Shown here in pieces: positions 464 through 28,442 of a stretch of DNA of 29,783 nucleotides. Source of the DNA: a virus (Duplodnaviria; Caudoviricetes); the IMG/VR virus record IMGVR_UViG_3300020059_000008, positions 1 through 29,783 of that record; one strand, 5' to 3'. Each line of letters starts with the position of its first letter. The first letter of the stretch is position 1. Under the pieces are notes generated by a model, which saw only the letters and a list, made by a program, of their open reading frames with translations, searched no databases and had not been told where the DNA came from. Made by a program: the position numbers and the translations under genes.

Positions 464-1666
464 CTACGCTGCTGCTGCTGTGAGATTCTCGATCACACAT
501 CCCGAGAAGGGATTGATGTACTCTACTGCAAACTCTGATGTGAGGGATCCACCTACAGAGTCTGCACCACCAGCATTGTTCTTCCCATCTCCCCCAAATT
601 CCTCTGACTTAGTATCTCTTCCATTCATGAAAGCAAGTTTGATGGCAGCAAGCTCAAGTACTACCATGAGCTTCGAGAGTGCAGCATTAGTGTTGAAGAG
701 TGGGTGTTCTACAATATTGATACTTCCTTTGTAGAACTTGAACTTAGTGAACTGCATACCAAAGGAGGTCTCAGACTGAGAAATCATGATTTGACCATAG
801 AGGTGACCAATGTCATTGAGTACTTTATTTGCAGTTGCACCAACGAATGCGATACGCTCTTTGGTGTTACCCTGATCTGTGGAGTAGAGGAAAGCAGGCT
901 CAACAAGAGCAACAAGCTGAGCGAATGTTGTTGTGCCACCTGCTGCATTCGTATTGGCTGGAGCATATTGATCAATTGCATCATATATACCTTGAGTAGC
1001 ATGTAGTGGTCCTGTTACACCTGTAGCTGGCGCAAGTGGCTGTCCAAAGAAGATCGCTGATTCACAATCTACAGAGTGCAGAATGGAGCAATCCTTTCTA
1101 TTCTCTTGAACGTTGCCAAACCCTTGTTCTGTAAGAGAAGCTCTCGCTGTGTCTGTTACAGCCCAAGCATTACGGAAGATTTGTGTGAAGTTTGGTACAT
1201 AGACTGTGGTCATCCCACGAGGTGTCGGACGAGCTGATCCCTCTTCAAATGCTCCACCAATAACGATCAGTGGATCACCTGCTACGGAATCAGAGGCAGC
1301 TACACGACCAAATGCTCTCGCTACTGTGATGTGAGTACCATCAACAATAGCTGTAATCCTCATATTCTCCCTGCTCCTCGGGTTATATAACACCATACCA
1401 GGAGTAAGGCCAGCAGAAGCAGCTACTACGTAGTTTGTTACAGCAGCAAGATTGATGCCGTTTGATGTAGTAGCAGCAAACTGCAAAGTCTTGCTGAAAT
1501 AGCCATGCGTAGAGGACTTAGCTGTAGACTTCGGCTGCTGTGACAACAAACCCCAGAGAGGAAATGAGCCATTGGGGAAGAGACGAAGCATAGTACCTGC
1601 GAAACTCCTCACGTTGAGTTCAGCAGGATTAGTAGTTGTGTTGAATACACCAGAGAAGAAACTCAT
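464..1666 (-). CDS. Major capsid protein (HK97 fold, SU10-MCP/DUF5309-like)
   Basis: ~400 aa, follows the scaffold-like gene; motifs NFTQIFRNAWAVTDT and E..IFFGQ resemble SU10-type capsids; GGAGG SD favours ATG 1666 over GTG 1672. Confidence 0.85.
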   Translation of the reverse strand: MSFFSGVFNTTTNPAELNVRSFAGTMLRLFPNGSFPLWGLLSQQPKSTAKSSTHGYFSKTLQFAATTSNGINLAAVTNYVVAASAGLTPGMVLYNPRSRENMRITAIVDGTHITVARAFGRVAASDSVAGDPLIVIGGAFEEGSARPTPRGMTTVYVPNFTQIFRNAWAVTDTARASLTEQGFGNVQENRKDCSILHSVDCESAIFFGQPLAPATGVTGPLHATQGIYDAIDQYAPANTNAAGGTTTFAQLVALVEPAFLYSTDQGNTKERIAFVGATANKVLNDIGHLYGQIMISQSETSFGMQFTKFKFYKGSINIVEHPLFNTNAALSKLMVVLELAAIKLAFMNGRDTKSEEFGGDGKNNAGGADSVGGSLTSEFAVEYINPFSGCVIENLTAAAA

Positions 1667-1720: not shown

Positions 1721-2491
1721 TCAGTTTTTAGAGCCAGCAGTCATCCACTCTTCCCAGTTAATATCCTCCTCTGCATCTTTCCCGTCAGCTCCCTTTTGTT
1801 TTGGAGTGAGAGAAGGATCAAGCTGTTTAGCAACAGTAACGAAATAGTTCTTCGTCTGTTCTGCTATCCAGTCTGGAGTAGCGTCAGGATACTTGGAGGC
1901 TATCTTATCTCCAATCTCCGTGACGTGCTCTTTTAGAGTAGGATTCTGTTCTGCTAGTTTGGCGAGACTATTTGCTGTCAGTACTGAGTGTACTGATTGA
2001 CCTAGTCCCTTGCGGTCATGAGCCATCCTAGCTCCCACAAACTTATCAGTGAGAGTGGAGGAATGTGACATGGTAGTCTGGTATACTTGACGACCCAACT
2101 CATTAAAGGCTTCAGCTACTGCTGTAGCATCTCCACTCTGGAGCTTTTGTACAAGCTCTGGTGTTACATGAGAGGAGAAGTTAAGCTGTGATGCTGCGTT
2201 CTTAAGTAGAGTAGGATCAAGAGCGAAAACAGGTGGAGTTTCTTCCGCTGTTCTAACTTTATTATCGTACATTCCAGCGAAAGAGTCAAGAGGATTTTTA
2301 GTGTTTGAGTCACCAGCTTCAGCAAAGTCCTTAGATCCAGTATCTAGTGGATCATTAGGCTTTCTCTCCTTCGCTTGACGTATCTGCTGTTCTTGTTGTC
2401 CCTTTGAGAGTGGAGTCTGCTGATTTGTTGGTTTATTAGGGTCCGTAGGAGTGAGAGGTACTTTAGAGCGAAAGAAATCTGCAAGTGGCAT
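1721..2491 (-). CDS. Putative capsid scaffolding protein
   Basis: 256 aa, low-complexity N-terminus, helical body, directly upstream of the capsid gene (positional inference). Confidence 0.6.
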   Translation of the reverse strand: MPLADFFRSKVPLTPTDPNKPTNQQTPLSKGQQEQQIRQAKERKPNDPLDTGSKDFAEAGDSNTKNPLDSFAGMYDNKVRTAEETPPVFALDPTLLKNAASQLNFSSHVTPELVQKLQSGDATAVAEAFNELGRQVYQTTMSHSSTLTDKFVGARMAHDRKGLGQSVHSVLTANSLAKLAEQNPTLKEHVTEIGDKIASKYPDATPDWIAEQTKNYFVTVAKQLDPSLTPKQKGADGKDAEEDINWEEWMTAGSKN

Positions 2492-2497
2492 GTGATG

Positions 2498-2890
2498 TTA
2501 CTCCTTCTCAGTTAAGATACTTCTGACAACTGCACCAAAGATGTGATCTTTAGCCTTCTGATCTACTGGTAGTTCATCGTATGGAAGATAGCATGGATGC
2601 TCCTTCTTATTCACATCCTTCACTGCTCCCCACTTCCATCCTTCCTCTGTCTTTTGTTTCAACCAGGAATCATGAGAGGCTGATGGTGGAGCAGTTGGGT
2701 TGTCTATGATGAATAGTACTCCACTGATGGCTGAAGAACGTTGCCACTCTGGTGCATCTTCCCAGTGAGGTTGAGAGTTATCACCTAATGCTATACAGTA
2801 AGCACGATTTACCTCGTGACAGATACGAGCAATACGAACTACACGAACATCTGCTTCTGTAGATTCTGTTGCTGACTGCTTTTTAGCCAT
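2498..2890 (-). CDS. Stand-alone RyR-domain protein, candidate anti-defence
   Basis: IARICHE ... HDSW...K...GWKWG..KD..KKEHPC.LPYDELP..QKAKD is the RyR-repeat signature; GGAG SD. Confidence 0.85.
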   Translation of the reverse strand: MAKKQSATESTEADVRVVRIARICHEVNRAYCIALGDNSQPHWEDAPEWQRSSAISGVLFIIDNPTAPPSASHDSWLKQKTEEGWKWGAVKDVNKKEHPCYLPYDELPVDQKAKDHIFGAVVRSILTEKE

Positions 2891-2902
2891 GATACTATCT
2901 CC

Positions 2903-3127
2903 TCAAAAGAACTCTGGTTTAGCAACTGATCTTGTAAGAGCCATCAGACCCTCTTGAAGATGAATAGCACCAATAGAGACCCAACGTTGATCTAACACTT
3001 TATTCTCTTTCATTAGCGTTACTATATCTCCTAGCTCTTTCCCTTTTTGCTTTATTATGTTCATTAAATCTATCTCTTCTTGTGTCAGTTCACGATAACC
3101 TATGATCTTACGATGTTGATTCTCCAT
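2903..3127 (-). CDS. acb2: Anti-CBASS cyclic-oligonucleotide sponge, Acb2 family
   Basis: MENQHRKIIGYRELTQEEIDLMNIIK ... RWVSIG..HLQEGLMALTRSVAKPEFF closely matches Pseudomonas phage Acb2 as recalled; Y11 and K26 in register; AAGGAG SD. Confidence 0.88.
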   Translation of the reverse strand: MENQHRKIIGYRELTQEEIDLMNIIKQKGKELGDIVTLMKENKVLDQRWVSIGAIHLQEGLMALTRSVAKPEFF

Positions 3128-3133
3128 GATGTG

Positions 3134-3514
3134 TTATCTCCTTTGAGATTGATTGGTTGACGACGAACTGGACTGCTGATGATGTGGTATGTCATACGTT
3201 GAGAGAATGTTATGACATACCATGATGACACCTTTAAGCTTGTTGTATCTTGCAAGCAACTTAGTTTGATCACTGAACTCCGTAAAATCATTCATAAGTG
3301 TATCTCGTACAGCATTGTTAGCTAAAAGACGAAAGAAGCGAACGATTGTAGGATGGGAGAAACACTGTTTAAGTTCAACCTCCTCTTGTGATGTGAAGCT
3401 AGTGGGCAGTGGCAGGAGGTGGTGCATAGCCTGGAGTTCCTCCAACAGGTGGAGCTGCTCCTGTGTTTGGTGGGATTGGTGCTCCTCCTGTTGCTGCTGT
3501 AGTAGGTTGTCCAC
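3134..3514 (-). CDS. Hypothetical protein downstream of and overlapping the portal gene
   Basis: GTG start with AGGAG SD (alternative ATG 3427); typical small post-portal gene. Confidence 0.65.
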   Translation of the reverse strand: MDNLLQQQQEEHQSHQTQEQLHLLEELQAMHHLLPLPTSFTSQEEVELKQCFSHPTIVRFFRLLANNAVRDTLMNDFTEFSDQTKLLARYNKLKGVIMVCHNILSTYDIPHHQQSSSSSTNQSQRR

Positions 3515-5435
3515 TTGTTACTCCTGGTTGAGACTGCTGTTGAGGTTGAACTTCAGGTGAGTATTGATCAAGTCCTCTTACTCCACCAAGCTGAGCAAGA
3601 TGTGCTACCATGCGAGGTAGATAAGGACCATACTTCTCTTGTAGAATCTGACTCTGACCAACAAGCTGCATAAGTTGAACAATAAAGTCAGTAGATGCCA
3701 GCTTACTCTTTGGAGTATAGCCATCGGCAACTCTGAAGGAGAGGACTTTTTTGCGAAGAGAATCAATCACAGTGCGGTCTACATCTACTGTTTCACCTGT
3801 TCGCTGATTTGAGAATGCACCTTCTACTCCAAACTGAAAGATGTTAAACTTGATCTGTGTCTTGAAAGGTACCATGACTTGATACTCAATCATGAGAGCA
3901 GGAATCCTCATACGGTTATCGGCATTACCTGTAGTATCTCTCCACTCTTCCACTGATTTATTACCTTTCTGGAATTGTCCTCTTGCAGGCTTATTCATTC
4001 CAAGTGACTGATCTGACATCTCCCAGATACGTGCAGTATCTCCTATCACACCATCTGTACCTCGTGGATCATATGGGATTGGATAATACGCATCTGTCAA
4101 CTTCTTATCATTAAGACCTGTAAGACGTACAGGAATCTTTGGCGCGGAAGTAGGTGAATTAACATCTGCCTCATTGATGAGAGAAGAATCATAGAGTGCA
4201 CGATCTGACACTGAGCGTCGAGCAGAGGAGAAGCGTATATTCATGAGTGTAGAAGCTGCCTCTTGAAACTCAACCTGACTCTCACCAATGGAAGGTGTCT
4301 GAAGCTCAAAGCCATCCTCAAGAGGTTGACCTATGTGAATAGGAAGATAATCAAATGCTGTAATAAGACGTTTAGCGTACAAGAGCCACTGACCTGAAAG
4401 CATAACAAACTTCCAGATTTGTGGAGTGTTGGGAGATGGTACGTTAATGCCAAACTCAGAGGGAATGATGCGAGCATAGCATGTGAATCTCTCATATGTA
4501 CCAGCCATAAGAGACTTCTTCGAGACTGGAAGTGCTGCTCCTAACCATGTAGCCCAATCAAACTGGATTGTAGTCTTCTTGTTTGATGAAAGTTTATCAG
4601 TAATGACTGGGAGATCACGATAGTACATGAACATGTTGGTTTGATTAGTATCAATCTTACCGACGTTGTAAATATCACCAGACTGAGAGTACATGTTAAT
4701 GAACTTCTTAAGCTCAATGCGATTGATGGGATCAATCCAACCTGCAAATTCACCTTGAGCAGCTACACGAGAAGGTGATTTACGTATATCCCATACAGTG
4801 TTATACGGATCTAAGCGGGTGATACGGTTGTAGTTGGATGTTGTCTTCTCAGCTTTAGTAGAGGCAGTTGGAGTGAGATAGTTGTCTGAGAGTGAATATT
4901 GATCTATTGGCTCCCATGAGAGTTCAAGAGGCATGAAGTTATACTTAATACCATCACGAAATGCCATGAGAAACTCACGAGGATAGGCTGAAAGCGTAGC
5001 ATGATCATCGATGATAGCCTCTAAGGTTTCAGCCTCTTTGATGTTAGATGGCGTAGAAACTACAGGGAACATTGGATAACCACTCAAAAATACCTCAGAT
5101 AGGTAACCAACGTATGAATCTACCTGACTTATCACTACAGGTACGACAATTGCTCTGTCTGTATCAATGCCACATGAGACATTAGCAGAGTTCTGTGCTG
5201 CTCTTATGTCAACACCATCAACAAGCTTACTGGTATCAGAGAGAGCATTATAGCGATAGTATGCTGTATCAATAATCTCCATCTTATTACGCATATCTGT
5301 GAATTGATTGTGCATAGTGAGGATGTTACGAAGATAGTTCTGAAGAGCATCTACTGATGAGGAAGAGAGTCGAAGTGGATTACGTGAAGACTGGCCGGAG
5401 AGCTGAGAGACTGATGCTGTTGCTGTAGTTACCAT
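3399..5435 (-). CDS. Portal protein
   Basis: 678 aa directly downstream of TerL; podovirus-portal size and layout with a Q/P/G-rich C-terminal tail. Confidence 0.8.
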   Translation of the reverse strand: MVTTATASVSQLSGQSSRNPLRLSSSSVDALQNYLRNILTMHNQFTDMRNKMEIIDTAYYRYNALSDTSKLVDGVDIRAAQNSANVSCGIDTDRAIVVPVVISQVDSYVGYLSEVFLSGYPMFPVVSTPSNIKEAETLEAIIDDHATLSAYPREFLMAFRDGIKYNFMPLELSWEPIDQYSLSDNYLTPTASTKAEKTTSNYNRITRLDPYNTVWDIRKSPSRVAAQGEFAGWIDPINRIELKKFINMYSQSGDIYNVGKIDTNQTNMFMYYRDLPVITDKLSSNKKTTIQFDWATWLGAALPVSKKSLMAGTYERFTCYARIIPSEFGINVPSPNTPQIWKFVMLSGQWLLYAKRLITAFDYLPIHIGQPLEDGFELQTPSIGESQVEFQEAASTLMNIRFSSARRSVSDRALYDSSLINEADVNSPTSAPKIPVRLTGLNDKKLTDAYYPIPYDPRGTDGVIGDTARIWEMSDQSLGMNKPARGQFQKGNKSVEEWRDTTGNADNRMRIPALMIEYQVMVPFKTQIKFNIFQFGVEGAFSNQRTGETVDVDRTVIDSLRKKVLSFRVADGYTPKSKLASTDFIVQLMQLVGQSQILQEKYGPYLPRMVAHLAQLGGVRGLDQYSPEVQPQQQSQPGVTSGQPTTAATGGAPIPPNTGAAPPVGGTPGYAPPPATAH

Positions 5436-5463: not shown

Positions 5464-5694
5464 TTACTGTGAATTAAATAAAATACTTGAGATACGACTA
5501 CAAGCTTTCGCTATGTCCTGGATATACATATCAAGATATTTCTTCTTTAATATAACATCTTGAGTAAAGTCTAATTCCTCTATCTTTTCTGATACACTTA
5601 GAATAGTTCTCAGTTCAGAAAATATAACAAGAGAAGAAGGATAACTCATAATGTTAAACTGCCTGTTAGAATGGTGTGTTATTTGCTTGTACAC
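5464..5694 (-). CDS. Small AT-rich hypothetical protein between TerL and portal
   Basis: ORF fills the gap on the operon strand; visibly more AT-rich than its neighbours; start uncertain. Confidence 0.45.
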   Translation of the reverse strand: MYKQITHHSNRQFNIMSYPSSLVIFSELRTILSVSEKIEELDFTQDVILKKKYLDMYIQDIAKACSRISSILFNSQ

Positions 5695-7174
5695 GAAACT
5701 GAGAGCCTAGTTGCTGATGCTCCCTGACAGACAAGAGTGGCCAGTATGTGTTTCTTACCTCAAGTCCCATCGATGGGGAGTCGAGCCAGTCATCTCTATT
5801 CTTCTTCTTCCCAAGACGGTATGCGGTAGCTTGCCAGGTAAATCGTTGCCTATCCGTATCCCTCAGGAAGTAATACTCTTCACCATAGATCTCTTTGATG
5901 AATAGTCGAATATGATATTCCTTTGCTTTAACTCCTCTGTTGAGAGGAACAACATTAATTCCCTCTATCTTCTCCTCTTTGAGTGTACGTGTCATCCAGT
6001 ATTGGAGAGACTGCTGATAACCTACATCCTCGATTGCGATGAGGTTAGCATTATGACGTAATGCGAGAGCGATAGTATTCTGACATGTTATTCCTGGATC
6101 CCATATACCACCATCCATCTCAGCTATATAGCCTTTACCATCTATGATGTAGTGAGCAGTAACTACATTGTCGTCTGACTGCTTACGAAAGCCTGCTGGA
6201 TCAAGTGTGATAAAGGAAGCTGTTGGCTCAGGAATAAAGGAATCGAAAGGAGAGAGTGGAAATGGTCCTCGTATAAAGCCATCTGCTGACTCTACTGGAT
6301 CATTCATGATCTCAGCAAACCAGATGTTAGCTTTGCCTAAGGACTCATCATGCTTAAAATCCTCATGTAAATCCGAGAGAGATTGAAGCTCGGGCCACAG
6401 TGGTTCACCAGTCTCAAGTATACCACCAGTAATCAGTGATATCCAGAAGGGATTCTGTTTCAAACGATACAAGATGCAGTGATCTGAGTACATATTACCA
6501 ACGTACATGATGATTGCACGATGTCGATTAATCGCCTTGAGGAGTGTACCAACAAACCAATCGAAGAGGACTTCACGATCTGTATCAGAATCATCATTCT
6601 CCTTCGTTTGCATATCATCGCAACAGACTACATCTGGCCTCTTGTTATCAATGTTGATCCCACGAGCAGCTGTTCCAGCTCCAATAGCTCTCAAGATGAT
6701 AACTCGCTTGTGGTAGAGGGCCTTCTTTAGTCCTCGATTATCTGTTACAAGGTTATCCTTCCACTTACCAAAGATAGCTTCAATGTTGGGAGAGGAGAGT
6801 ATGTTTGAGACATCATCGAGGAAGTTCTCAGCATGAGGCTCTGTTGCACAGACTATGAGAACAAAGTTGGTTTTATCAAACACTACAAGCCAAGAGATCA
6901 ACACTTTAAGGTATGTTGTTTTGATATAACCTCGTGGGAGACCTATAGCGTAACGAAGAACCTTGATGAGCTCTGTGTCTGTGATACCAGCGTGAAGTAC
7001 GGAGAAGAGGGCGATGTAGTATTCTGGAAATGCGTAAAGGAAAATGTCTGGAATACAGAGTCCAGCAAAGAAGTTAAAATCAGATGAGCAGCGAGATCTA
7101 GCAGCGTCAGAGGAGACTGCTACATCGTTGATCTCTGAGAGATCAGAGGAGAAGATGTCAGGACGAGAGGTCAT
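5666..7174 (-). CDS. terL: Terminase large subunit
   Basis: Walker A-like LPRGYIKTT, Walker B RPDVVCCDD, YVGN coupling motif, RNase H-like nuclease motifs LDPAG and RDDWLDS. Confidence 0.92.
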   Translation of the reverse strand: MTSRPDIFSSDLSEINDVAVSSDAARSRCSSDFNFFAGLCIPDIFLYAFPEYYIALFSVLHAGITDTELIKVLRYAIGLPRGYIKTTYLKVLISWLVVFDKTNFVLIVCATEPHAENFLDDVSNILSSPNIEAIFGKWKDNLVTDNRGLKKALYHKRVIILRAIGAGTAARGINIDNKRPDVVCCDDMQTKENDDSDTDREVLFDWFVGTLLKAINRHRAIIMYVGNMYSDHCILYRLKQNPFWISLITGGILETGEPLWPELQSLSDLHEDFKHDESLGKANIWFAEIMNDPVESADGFIRGPFPLSPFDSFIPEPTASFITLDPAGFRKQSDDNVVTAHYIIDGKGYIAEMDGGIWDPGITCQNTIALALRHNANLIAIEDVGYQQSLQYWMTRTLKEEKIEGINVVPLNRGVKAKEYHIRLFIKEIYGEEYYFLRDTDRQRFTWQATAYRLGKKKNRDDWLDSPSMGLEVRNTYWPLLSVREHQQLGSQFRVQANNTPF

Positions 7175-8905: not shown

Positions 8906-9044
8906 CGAGCGTAGCGAGCGGTGCGAGGAACGAGCACTCTTGAGCGAACGTAGTGAGCATACGAGCGTAGCGAGTTCGTTGAGCGAAGCGAAAGGTTAGC
9001 GAGCATAGCGAGCGTCTCTTGATCTGCTTTCCGAGCGAAGCGAG
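8906..9044 (+). repeat. Cluster of CGAGC-RNA-GCGAG mini-hairpin repeats
   Basis: Copies at 8906-8918, 8962-8974, 8981-8991 (core), 9000-9012 (ATA loop) and 9032-9044, plus related GTGC-GAG-GAA-CGA-GCAC at 8921-8937. Confidence 0.85.
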
Positions 9045-9156
9045 GCGTTTTTTTTGAGTGTAATCAGTGGGTTACACATGCTCACCCATCTCCGGTCTGG
9101 TTGTCATAGTCTAGTATCCTCAGTGTGCAGTGTGTGTGAGTGAGTGTGTGAGTGTG

Positions 9157-10726: not shown

Positions 10727-10914
10727 GGTGGTATCCTCAATGGTGGTAAATGTGTTACTGCTCGTTACTACTGTGTTACTACTGTGTTAGACTCTGAATA
10801 ACAAATAAGTTCACCGCTCGGTTGACATTAAATAACAAATACTTTTACACTATCTGGCATGATTTATGCTCCCAATCCCCAAATATGGGTCATTTTATAA
10901 TCAGATTGGATGAT

Positions 10915-10923
10915 AGTATAACA
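10915..10923 (-). promoter_or_regulatory. Possible leftward extended -10 promoter (TGtTATACT)
   Basis: TGn-TATACT on the minus strand upstream of the leftward early genes. Confidence 0.4.
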
Positions 10924-10953
10924 GACGAAACACTAAAACCGAAACACAAAATA

Positions 10954-11570
10954 CGACCTGATGTGATATCACTATTTGGATGCAAAATACGGAATGATAT
11001 AGTATCACAGATGGATATTATGTGTGATGGATGGATGGATTTCACGATTTAGGGTTTCACGATTTCAGGGAAAATAAAAGATACTTATTTTGATAAGTCG
11101 ATAGGGGGGTCCGTAATCTGGCGGTATAAAACCATGCATAGTGGAATATACTACGGGGTAAGCATACGAGCCGAGCGGGAGGGAGAGAGTATATGGTCTA
11201 AGGTAGGAGGATTATAGAGGGAGAGAGTATATAGTGTATAATATATGGTATAGTGTTATAGGGTATTTAAATATTATTTTTTAATGTTAAAACTTTGACG
11301 GCTAATGTATGCTGTGGAAAATAAGACTCTCTTACTCTATCCACACATGAATCCTCTCCCAACAGACTCCATACTCTCTCCTCACATCCCTCCTCACTGC
11401 ACTCCACACTCTCCCATACACTCCATACACTAAACTGCTATGCTATTACACTATGGGCACTTTTACCTGACCGAATTACGGACCCCCCCAAGCCTCTAAC
11501 GAAATAAAAAACTTTTTTTCTGCATTTTTCGTGCTATACTCAAATTCCAGACATCCAAAAAATCAGGTCG
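10954..11570. repeat. Large degenerate inverted repeat at the divergence point (candidate origin/control region)
   Basis: Nested inverted blocks: CGACCTGAT 10954-62 / 11562-70; TTTGGATG 10975-82 / 11552-59; GGGGGGTCCGTAAT 11104-17 / 11475-88; CATAGTG and GGAGAGAGTAT blocks further in; AT-rich centre near 11260-11295. Confidence 0.85.
11532..11540 (+). promoter_or_regulatory. Possible rightward extended -10 promoter (TGcTATACT)
   Basis: TGn-TATACT 80 bp upstream of the first rightward gene. Confidence 0.45.
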
Positions 11571-11619
11571 AAAAGTACACCTACGATACGATGCATACTA
11601 TATAAAGGAGAATAATATC

Positions 11620-16381: not shown

Positions 16382-16507
16382 ATGAAAGATATGTTTCGCC
16401 TTTTTGGAACAATGACACTAGTGTTCATTATAATGATACTAACACTACCATGGATAGCAAAATTCATTTGCTTCTATTTTAATTATGTAAAAGGATGGAC
16501 ATTATGA
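16382..16507 (+). CDS. Small membrane protein (41 aa)
   Basis: Below the track cut-off; AAGGAG SD; MKDMFRLFGTMTLVFIIMILTLPWIAKFICFYFNYVKGWTL; ATGA overlap with the next gene. Confidence 0.55.
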   Translation: MKDMFRLFGTMTLVFIIMILTLPWIAKFICFYFNYVKGWTL

Positions 16508-16812
16508 GCGACATGAACTTCAATGCAATAACAACACTAAAGGAACTAAAGGCTGCTGGATTCTCTGAGCCTCAAGCAGAGGCAGCAGCAATGGAATTGC
16601 TTAAGTTGAACAATATACTCCTCTCTATCATGCTGACAAAAGAAGAATTCAAGCAAGAGCTGAGAGTATCGAATTTAAGTATTGAGAGCAAGATTGGTGA
16701 TTTGGGACACAAGATAGATAAGCTGAAATATCAACTTCTCACACAGTTAGGAACTCTAATGATTATACTCTTTGGAGTAGCACCAAAGATTGTTGAATGG
16801 ATAATGAGGTGA
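16504..16812 (+). CDS. DUF1640/CCDC90-like coiled-coil membrane-anchored protein
   Basis: FNA....KELKAAGFSEPQAEA head, LTKEE neck, coiled coil, C-terminal hydrophobic helix. Confidence 0.75.
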   Translation: MSDMNFNAITTLKELKAAGFSEPQAEAAAMELLKLNNILLSIMLTKEEFKQELRVSNLSIESKIGDLGHKIDKLKYQLLTQLGTLMIILFGVAPKIVEWIMR

Positions 16813-20267: not shown

Positions 20268-20513
20268 ATGGCTACTGTAACTGTAACGTTTGACACATTG
20301 CAAGCTGCACAGGATTTGATAGATGCGGGCTTTAGTGAGAAGCAAGCAAAGGCTGCTGTACGTGTAATCTCTGATGCTCAGGCACGCCTAGTAACAAAGG
20401 AAGACCTTAACATAGCTATACAAGGACTTCTTATAAAGCAGAGTGTAGTAGTTGCAACTATGCTTGGTCTCACAGTTGCTGTTCTCGGATTTCTGATACG
20501 TTTGCCACATTGA
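20268..20513 (+). CDS. DUF1640/CCDC90-like membrane-anchored protein (short copy)
   Basis: TFDTLQAAQDLIDAGFSEKQAKA head, LVTKEDL neck, C-terminal TM helix; AAAGGAG SD. Confidence 0.8.
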   Translation: MATVTVTFDTLQAAQDLIDAGFSEKQAKAAVRVISDAQARLVTKEDLNIAIQGLLIKQSVVVATMLGLTVAVLGFLIRLPH

Positions 20514-27520: not shown

Positions 27521-28101
27521 CAACCGAGCAGAATCAATATATCAATGTGATGTGTGATCTGGAAACTCTGGGAACGAGGCCAGGATGCAAGTTGCTAAGT
27601 ATTGCAGCAGTGCCATTCTTGCTTGAGAAAGATGAAGATCAACTTGCATCATTCTACGAGAAGATAAGACGAGACAGTTATTACGTAGTATTTCATGAAG
27701 ATATTTCCACGCTCTTGTGGTGGGAAGATCAGAGTAAAGAAGCAAGAGTTGAAGCTTTTAGTGGTAACAAAGGAATAGCTCAAGTGCTAGGTGAATTTAC
27801 TACATGGTGCAGTAGTATCACCTATAATGGAAGAAAGATACTATTCTGGGGAAATGGAGCAGACTTTGATAATGCTATTCTGCAAGAAACTTATAAACTC
27901 TGCGGACTCAAAGCACCTTGGGAATACTTTAATAACAGATGCTATCGTACGTTAAAAGCACTGTTTCCTCAAATACCATATACTAAACCAAAAATAGCAC
28001 ATAATGCATTGGAAGATGCTAAGGCTCAGGCTGTTCATGCAGAGCACATACTCAGAACAGTAGAAGCTTGTGAAGATCACATACAGGAGATTACAGGATG
28101 A
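27517..28101 (+). CDS. DEDDh 3'-5' exonuclease (Rv2179c/DUF5051-like)
   Basis: MCDLETLG, WGNGADFD..IL, PW....RCYRT, HNALEDA..QA. Confidence 0.9.
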   Translation: MTTEQNQYINVMCDLETLGTRPGCKLLSIAAVPFLLEKDEDQLASFYEKIRRDSYYVVFHEDISTLLWWEDQSKEARVEAFSGNKGIAQVLGEFTTWCSSITYNGRKILFWGNGADFDNAILQETYKLCGLKAPWEYFNNRCYRTLKALFPQIPYTKPKIAHNALEDAKAQAVHAEHILRTVEACEDHIQEITG

Positions 28102-28442
28102 CACTCCAACTTAAAATGAATGAGTTTGATAATCGCACATCAGCAGAACTTGCAGCTGAAAGCTTTAGTGGAATACGCACTAATGATATAATGAGTCGAT
28201 TTGAGATTTGGATTGCAGGACAAATGGATAGAACACTCACGTATGAGAGATTCTGGAGAGAGCCTCACAGTCTAGAAACAGTGTACTGTGAAGCGTTTGG
28301 ACTAAAGAAGGTAACACTAAGTGGAGCTGTGGCGGAGGCTATCAGAGAGATAGCTGGGAGGAAGAGAGGGATTGCAGAGATGGAGGATACGGAAGAGGGG
28401 AGGAGGATACTTGATAACACAGGAAGGAAGATTGAGGACTAG
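28098..28442 (+). CDS. Hypothetical protein
   Basis: AGGAG SD, ATGA overlap; last gene of the rightward unit. Confidence 0.75.
   Translation: MTLQLKMNEFDNRTSAELAAESFSGIRTNDIMSRFEIWIAGQMDRTLTYERFWREPHSLETVYCEAFGLKKVTLSGAVAEAIREIAGRKRGIAEMEDTEEGRRILDNTGRKIED

Follow-up and report, generated by a model that had tools for sequence, protein, structure and literature searches.

Why would a phage keep two predicted sponges for bacterial alarm molecules within the operon that encodes its head? The question is raised by IMG/VR record IMGVR_UViG_3300020059_000008, of which we analyzed the whole 29,783-nucleotide stretch (hereafter, the window). The original prediction described an acb2 gene and a stand-alone RyR-domain gene, 12 bp apart and co-oriented, as a late module that neutralizes both CBASS and Thoeris. 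The arrangement itself is as described: acb2 occupies positions 2903–3127 (74 aa) and the RyR gene positions 2498–2890 (130 aa), both on the minus strand. They are part of an operon in the order terS, terL, portal, small gene, acb2, RyR, putative scaffold, and SU10-type capsid. The features of the locus are as follows.

464–1666, minus strand: SU10-type major capsid (PF17236, phrog_1328; 49% to the PaMx41 capsid, alignment A1)
1721–2491, minus strand: putative scaffold, downstream border of the insertion (phrog_16263; position before the capsid gene)
2498–2890, minus strand: stand-alone RyR Tad / sponge-type RyDEP family protein (PF02026; alignment with CB1 gp68; fold model)
2903–3127, minus strand: acb2 (short form), predicted cyclic-dinucleotide sponge (PF24729; PDB 8h2j p26; alignment with PaP2 p26)
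3134–3427, minus strand: conserved small gene of the head operon, upstream border of the insertion (local HMM, RBS)
3399–5435, minus strand: portal (phrog_15554, E 2e-115; 36.5% to the PaMx41 portal)
5666–7174: terL

The pair was said to lie between the portal and the scaffold/capsid genes. It does reside in the head operon, but the small gene separates the portal from acb2, and the two sponge genes are therefore flanked by this small gene and the scaffold. The small gene (~85–97 aa; its start at 3427 is placed from the RBS and the length of homologues) has no match in Pfam, NCBIfam, or PHROG, and matches an HMM built from 45 relatives with E 7e-16. Essentially all relatives have a gene of ~85 aa between their portal and scaffold genes, and it is likely an uncharacterized head-assembly factor. 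The putative scaffold is named by position alone, PHROG 16263 being without a function; its homologues directly precede the capsid gene in relatives.

The phage is a PaMx41/PaP2-like podophage. The named relatives of its portal are EBPR podovirus 3, Polaromonas phage Tiera, and the PaMx41/PaP2 group (Fredfastierviridae), and the contig is thus distantly related to the phages that led to the discovery of Acb2. The sequencing runs that contain it are soil metagenomes. Two contigs from run X1, which is possibly the source sample, span positions 2300–3500 with zero letter differences. The contig is probably partial. None of its 30 proteins matched NCBIfam, and the window has no Rfam match.

Several other regions drew our attention. 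In a non-coding stretch upstream of the packaging operon (8915–9050), a T run follows several imperfect repeats of short length; this stretch does not fold better than shuffled sequences (z +1.8) and has no Rfam match. The divergent arms are separated by an AT-rich non-coding region (10730–11600) that contains short tandem repeats as well as promoter-like boxes; it probably represents the genome ends or a control region. Two small replication-arm genes (16495–16812 and 20268–20513) have weak CCDC90-like (PF07798) matches below the cut-off.

Identity of the Acb2 and RyR proteins

The product of acb2 matches the Acb2/Tad1 hairpin family in Pfam (PF24729; E 7e-17, 61.8 bits against a cut-off of 27) and PDB entry 8h2j (p26; E 5e-14). 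It is 35% identical to PaP2 p26 and up to 73% identical to environmental homologues. Acb2 hexamers are reported to hold cyclic dinucleotides via Y11 and K26, and trinucleotides via R67 and T74 (PMC10312549). In an alignment of 57 of the 80 fetched homologues, all 57 have Y11 and 56 have K26, and the window protein keeps both. It thus shares with the Acb2 of PaMx33 and PaP2 (PMC10312549; bioRxiv 10.1101/2022.03.30.486325) its family, a related phage lineage, and the Y11, K26, and R67 positions, but differs in its length (74 vs. 93 aa), in having isoleucine at the position of T74, and in its modest identity to PaP2 p26 despite the relatedness of the phages.

The RyR protein likewise exceeds the curated Pfam cut-off (PF02026, E 1.4e-10), and both of the proposed protein identities therefore hold. 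The link between phage RyR proteins and Thoeris that the original prediction drew on is published (bioRxiv 10.64898/2026.06.04.730250; PMC13232231). Gp68 of Pectobacterium phage vB_PatP_CB1 (CB1) is a RyR Tad, described as a dimeric sponge for 1''-3' gcADPR with a KD of 43 nM, and its C-terminal domain by itself blocks type I Thoeris (bioRxiv 10.64898/2026.06.04.730250). The window protein is 53% identical to gp68 over 117 aa, an alignment that spans this active C-terminal part. All six of the mutationally tested binding residues of gp68 (H129, W132, K147, H154, K170, and D171) are kept in the alignment, as H73, W76, K91, H98, K114, and D115, and each is invariant in 61 of 61 dereplicated homologues. 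The two proteins share a four-helix RyR-repeat fold; the window model (pLDDT 93.5) gave 6uhi as its top Foldseek match (E 2.5e-4, TM 0.65), and all matches listed were RyR-type, but included neither a RyR Tad nor a RyDEP entry. Unlike gp68, the window protein stands alone, without the N-terminal domain, and its gene is in a head operon rather than beside the primase in an N4-like hotspot.

A second known system is RyDEP, gp78 of Mycobacterium phage DyoEdafos, which cleaves cADPR signals. Among eight other homologues of RyDEP, six bound these signals, two did not, and none cleaved them (PMC13232231); the sponge-type members H4 and H7 from that report are, alongside RyR Tad, the close known systems. 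Equivalents of RyDEP residues H75, W78, H100, and D117 are present in the window protein with identical spacing. Among the passages on RyR proteins that we covered, none reports binding of His-ADPR.

A related strain from a second study (run X3) is represented by a contig that bridges the scaffold-RyR junction at ~93% identity (33 differences in 506 letters) and ends before acb2. Its RyR gene differs at 24 listed sites, 15 of them third codon positions and none within residues 72–119; nine of the 20 changed codons are non-synonymous, Q50 included (one contig, depth about 4). Twenty-two of the 24 differences fall within 91 bp (2679–2769) and none in the binding-site region (2532–2678), and this patch, on one low-depth contig, has possibly been recombined.

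Both proteins have relatives with another activity. Acb2 had been credited with binding di- and trinucleotides, and it might still bind trinucleotides as PaMx33 Acb2 does, given that the equivalents of R67 and I71 are kept (R48 and I52) and that a T74A mutant retains some cA3 binding (lowered but not abolished, KD about 291 nM; PMC10312549). However, the same mutant barely inhibits NucC, and CHI14 Acb2, in which R67 is the only one of the two residues kept, fails to bind cA3 (PMC10312549). The window protein has I55 at the T74 position, where 55 of the 57 aligned homologues carry threonine; its codon is one base from a threonine codon and is the same in the X1 contig. The residue pair of the broad-spectrum PaMx33 and JBD67 proteins (R67 plus T74) is consequently incomplete. 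Isoleucine at this position would likely make the protein a poor binder of cyclic trinucleotides, and we regard a PaMx33-like spectrum as unlikely. Since T74 is needed for tight cA3 binding, the trinucleotide part of the earlier claim was probably overstated, whereas the dinucleotide part agrees with the retained Y11 and K26. We infer a dinucleotide-focused sponge with weak or no cA3 binding. Family membership is unaffected: the T4 and CHI14 proteins each lack one trinucleotide-pocket residue and are still Acb2 (PMC10312549), so the missing threonine narrows only the subtype. As type II Panoptes is reported to use cA3 as a decoy that is tripped by PaMx33 Acb2 (PMC13577387; PMC13712596), it is conceivable, but speculative, that I55 is beneficial against this defense.

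The corresponding alternative is that the RyR protein, like RyDEP, acts as a glycosidase and cleaves 2'/3'cADPR rather than sequestering it. The catalytic dyad of RyDEP (H75/D117) is indeed matched by H73/D115. The dyad is, however, also present in the sponge-type, non-catalytic members, and so cannot tell a sponge from an enzyme; moreover, no cleavage was seen with any of the eight other homologues, as noted above. Identity to DyoEdafos RyDEP is 25% overall (36% over 53 aa), as opposed to 53% to the sponge gp68. DyoEdafos gp78 sits between NARP1 enzymes, whereas the neighbors of the window gene are head genes, and no NARP1-type enzyme was found among the proteins scanned in what is probably a partial contig. 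A glycosidase is therefore very improbable, and the RyR protein is best read as a predicted sponge that traps Thoeris gcADPR.

Absence of the pair from relatives

Relatives were gathered by their portal and capsid proteins, and comprised three loci, the best 80 of 277 viral loci, five named genomes, and the best 80 of 457 metagenome loci, from which the window's own contig had been dropped. There were no RyR matches across these 165 family loci, most of which are fragments; the RyR protein is therefore not a constant structural component, the outcome that the original prediction had named as a refutation. Acb2 had two matches in the 165 loci, namely in PaP2 and PaMx41, where the gene ends the replication arm and is on the opposite strand, whereas the window acb2 is in the head operon. 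Neither gene was found in the seven genome-contig loci examined. Because most family loci are fragments, acb2 or RyR may sit elsewhere in those genomes.

The slot itself can be judged more directly. In all 82 clusters of relatives that carry both bordering genes (130 loci), no more than 42 bp separate the small gene from the scaffold, compared with 643 bp in the window. With the slot empty in every cluster of relatives, we conclude that the acb2/RyR pair is accessory. The GC3 and codon use of both genes match the phage. In 14 of 78 clusters, the wider interval from portal to scaffold is longer than 380 bp, and the extra DNA is always upstream of the small gene; passengers identified in this interval include a peptidase M15, a GIY-YIG nuclease, and a dNMP kinase-like gene, the last of these in PaMx41. 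In the window, the last gene of the replication arm (28098–28442), which corresponds to the acb2 slot of PaP2, gave no usable Atlas match.

One relative carries a 95 aa phrog_419 protein between the portal and the small gene (L059:4713–5000), and a homologue of this insert, Tiera gp24 (L006:24608–24883), fills the slot that holds acb2 in PaP2. Atlas matches of the insert are to domains fused to Tad2-like proteins (TM 0.94) and Acb2/Tad1-hairpin proteins (TM 0.73), making it and gp24 a candidate sponge-associated domain. An assignment of the insert as Tad2 itself was not confirmed: it has no Pfam or PDB match, and the Atlas alignment covers the non-Tad2 part of a Tad2 fusion.

Position in the head operon and pairing of sponges

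The original prediction overrated the location, which is not special. We surveyed the best 80 of 307 RyR loci and the best 80 of 324 acb2 loci, labeling the largest neighbors by PHROGs and spreading the labels by BLAST, so that the counts are minimum values. At least 34 of 80 RyR genes and at least 30 of 80 acb2 genes (at least 18 of 57 and 26 of 59, respectively, after clustering at 90%) have a co-oriented head or packaging gene within 2 kb. Seven of the 80 RyR loci (3 of 57 clusters) have the gene between portal and capsid, and one of these (L160) has the same order as the window, namely portal, small gene, RyR, a 292 aa gene, and SU10-type capsid; acb2 is between portal and scaffold/capsid in at least 2 of 80 (L168 and L201). 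The arrangement is missing from the portal-scaffold slot of relatives and recurs elsewhere; rare within this family of phages, the position is common for each gene in others. Control genes for the head-module tally yielded only four and six loci and were left out of the comparison, and these scans being too small, an enrichment in head modules cannot be claimed. There is also precedent, as acb2 lies beside the capsid gene in JBD67; its position elsewhere was reported as variable, with no obligate link to the capsid gene (Huiting et al., 10.1101/2022.03.30.486325). No systematic survey of sponge position was found in the open-access literature, judged by titles and abstract openings.

Nor is the pair a conserved cassette, given that Acb2 proper was near RyR in 1 of the 160 surveyed loci (L103, 1.4 kb apart). 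Covering CBASS and Thoeris with other partners is nevertheless a common logic. Eight of the 80 RyR loci encode a fusion of RyR with Acb4 (PF13876), seven recognized by Pfam and L123 by a local HMM, and a separate Acb4 gene accompanies RyR in five further loci of the 80. The PF24729 hairpin is fused to RyR in L113, and adjacent, more distant hairpin genes occur in L097 and L144. The neighbor of acb2 is a Tad2-like gene in 5 of 80 loci and a Sequestin-family gene in 1 of 80. The identification of PF13876 as Acb4 (10.1101/2025.07.12.664507; 10.1101/2024.12.30.630793) and the Acb4-Tad2 and Acb4-Sequestin fusions (10.1101/2025.07.12.664507) are published. These fusions, and the Migulavirinae anti-signaling hotspot (10.64898/2026.06.04.730250), resemble the window in addressing both signal classes from one locus; the window differs from the fusions in having two separate genes, Acb2 proper and RyR. 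Both capsid-adjacent acb2 and paired CBASS/Thoeris sponges are, accordingly, already in print.

Expression timing, selection, and packaging

The spacers between small gene, acb2, RyR, and scaffold are 6, 12, and 6 bp (the last from the RyR stop), all on the same strand. The acb2 and RyR genes have Shine-Dalgarno sites like their neighbors, with energies of −8.7 and −9.3 kcal/mol vs. −10.7 kcal/mol for capsid. A scan for sigma-70 promoters and terminators found nothing resembling either on the minus strand of the acb2/RyR interval; it returned 30 sites against 23.9 ± 4.9 in shuffles, which is no excess, and phage-specific late promoters are invisible to it. This layout fits co-transcription with portal and capsid, and the gene order suggests late expression. 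The PaMx41 capsid gene is reported to be of the middle-late class and CBASS to block a late stage (10.64898/2026.02.24.707611), and capsid proteins are cited as type I Thoeris triggers (PMC13243611; bioRxiv 10.64898/2026.06.04.730250), so late sponge expression would be useful. It is not required, however, since PaMx41 acb2 works from a middle-expressed position; that phage is reported to escape CBASS via capsid mutations (10.1101/2022.03.30.486325). A literature search on PaMx41 transcription and its virion proteome returned nothing relevant.

Two rival explanations concern the position. The head operon may have been selected so that the sponges are dosed and timed with the very capsid proteins that trigger CBASS and Thoeris; the recurrence of the arrangement (RyR in L160 and the other portal-capsid loci, acb2 in L168 and L201) and the published capsid triggers are consistent with this. 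Yet by the counts given above, 46 of 80 RyR and 50 of 80 acb2 homologues are not near head genes, and, by a hand count of the PaMx41 record, 6 to 9 of 30 small genes lie near head genes anyway. The portal-scaffold interval also hosts the unrelated passengers, and Huiting et al. saw no obligate link. Selection of the position is thus possible, but we lean against it. We consider still less likely, and decidedly doubtful, a broader version in which selection has repeatedly favored the insertion of sponge genes into head and packaging operons of unrelated phages, expression being matched to the capsid trigger, and in which the Thr-to-Ile Acb2 would trap CBASS dinucleotides and spare the cA3 decoy of type II Panoptes.

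The other explanation gives one or both proteins a place in the virion, either as packaged cargo that it delivers or as structural parts. Besides the location among head genes, it draws on H66/F116-like phages, in which a RyR domain fused to a domain of ~150–190 aa has a fixed place behind the capsid gene:

L118:4016–4855 and H66 gp47 (L248:3039–3911): RyR fusions of the H66/F116-like type
L120, L124, L125, L129, L130, L137, L140, L142, L143, L148, L153, and L161: more RyR fusion loci

However, the H66 record marks the flanking gp45, gp46, and gp48 as virion-verified by mass spectrometry and leaves the RyR-bearing gp47 unmarked, although this is a record note on a fusion protein in another phage. 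In phage Y7, the slot holds a shorter gene (161 aa), nearly all of which matches the partner domain. Together with the absence of the pair from all relatives examined (0 of 82 clusters), this leaves the suggestion of packaging unsupported, and we judge a virion or structural role to be highly unlikely.

Proposed role of the locus

The preferred reading, which we hold to be quite probable, is an accessory head-operon insertion encoding two independent signal sponges, Acb2 for CBASS cyclic dinucleotides and a RyR Tad-type protein for Thoeris gcADPR, probably expressed mid-to-late. The observations behind it are family membership by sequence, binding-site residues, gene order, and absence from relatives. 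In this scheme, acb2 and RyR would have been inserted between the small gene and scaffold of a PaMx41-like head operon, and both sponges would probably be synthesized together with the head proteins during the middle to late stages of infection. By analogy with the characterized proteins, Acb2 would trap CBASS cyclic dinucleotides via Y11/K26, and a RyR Tad-type dimer would trap 1''-3' gcADPR and so block type I Thoeris. Both would be expected to act in the cytoplasm rather than in the virion. They would likely share a transcript, not a mechanism, and contact between the two proteins would not be required.

The locus is explained without a new family or mechanism, as two new members of known sponge families. 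As both genes belong to published families that soak up alarm molecules, the phage would likely use them to blunt CBASS and Thoeris late in infection. The locus also offers a natural test case for sponge timing, in the very lineage in which Acb2 was discovered: elsewhere in this lineage acb2 is a middle gene, whereas here a different acb2 and a putative anti-Thoeris sponge are found by the capsid gene. The Ile55 variant, in turn, may be readily used to probe the trinucleotide pocket and the triggering of type II Panoptes.
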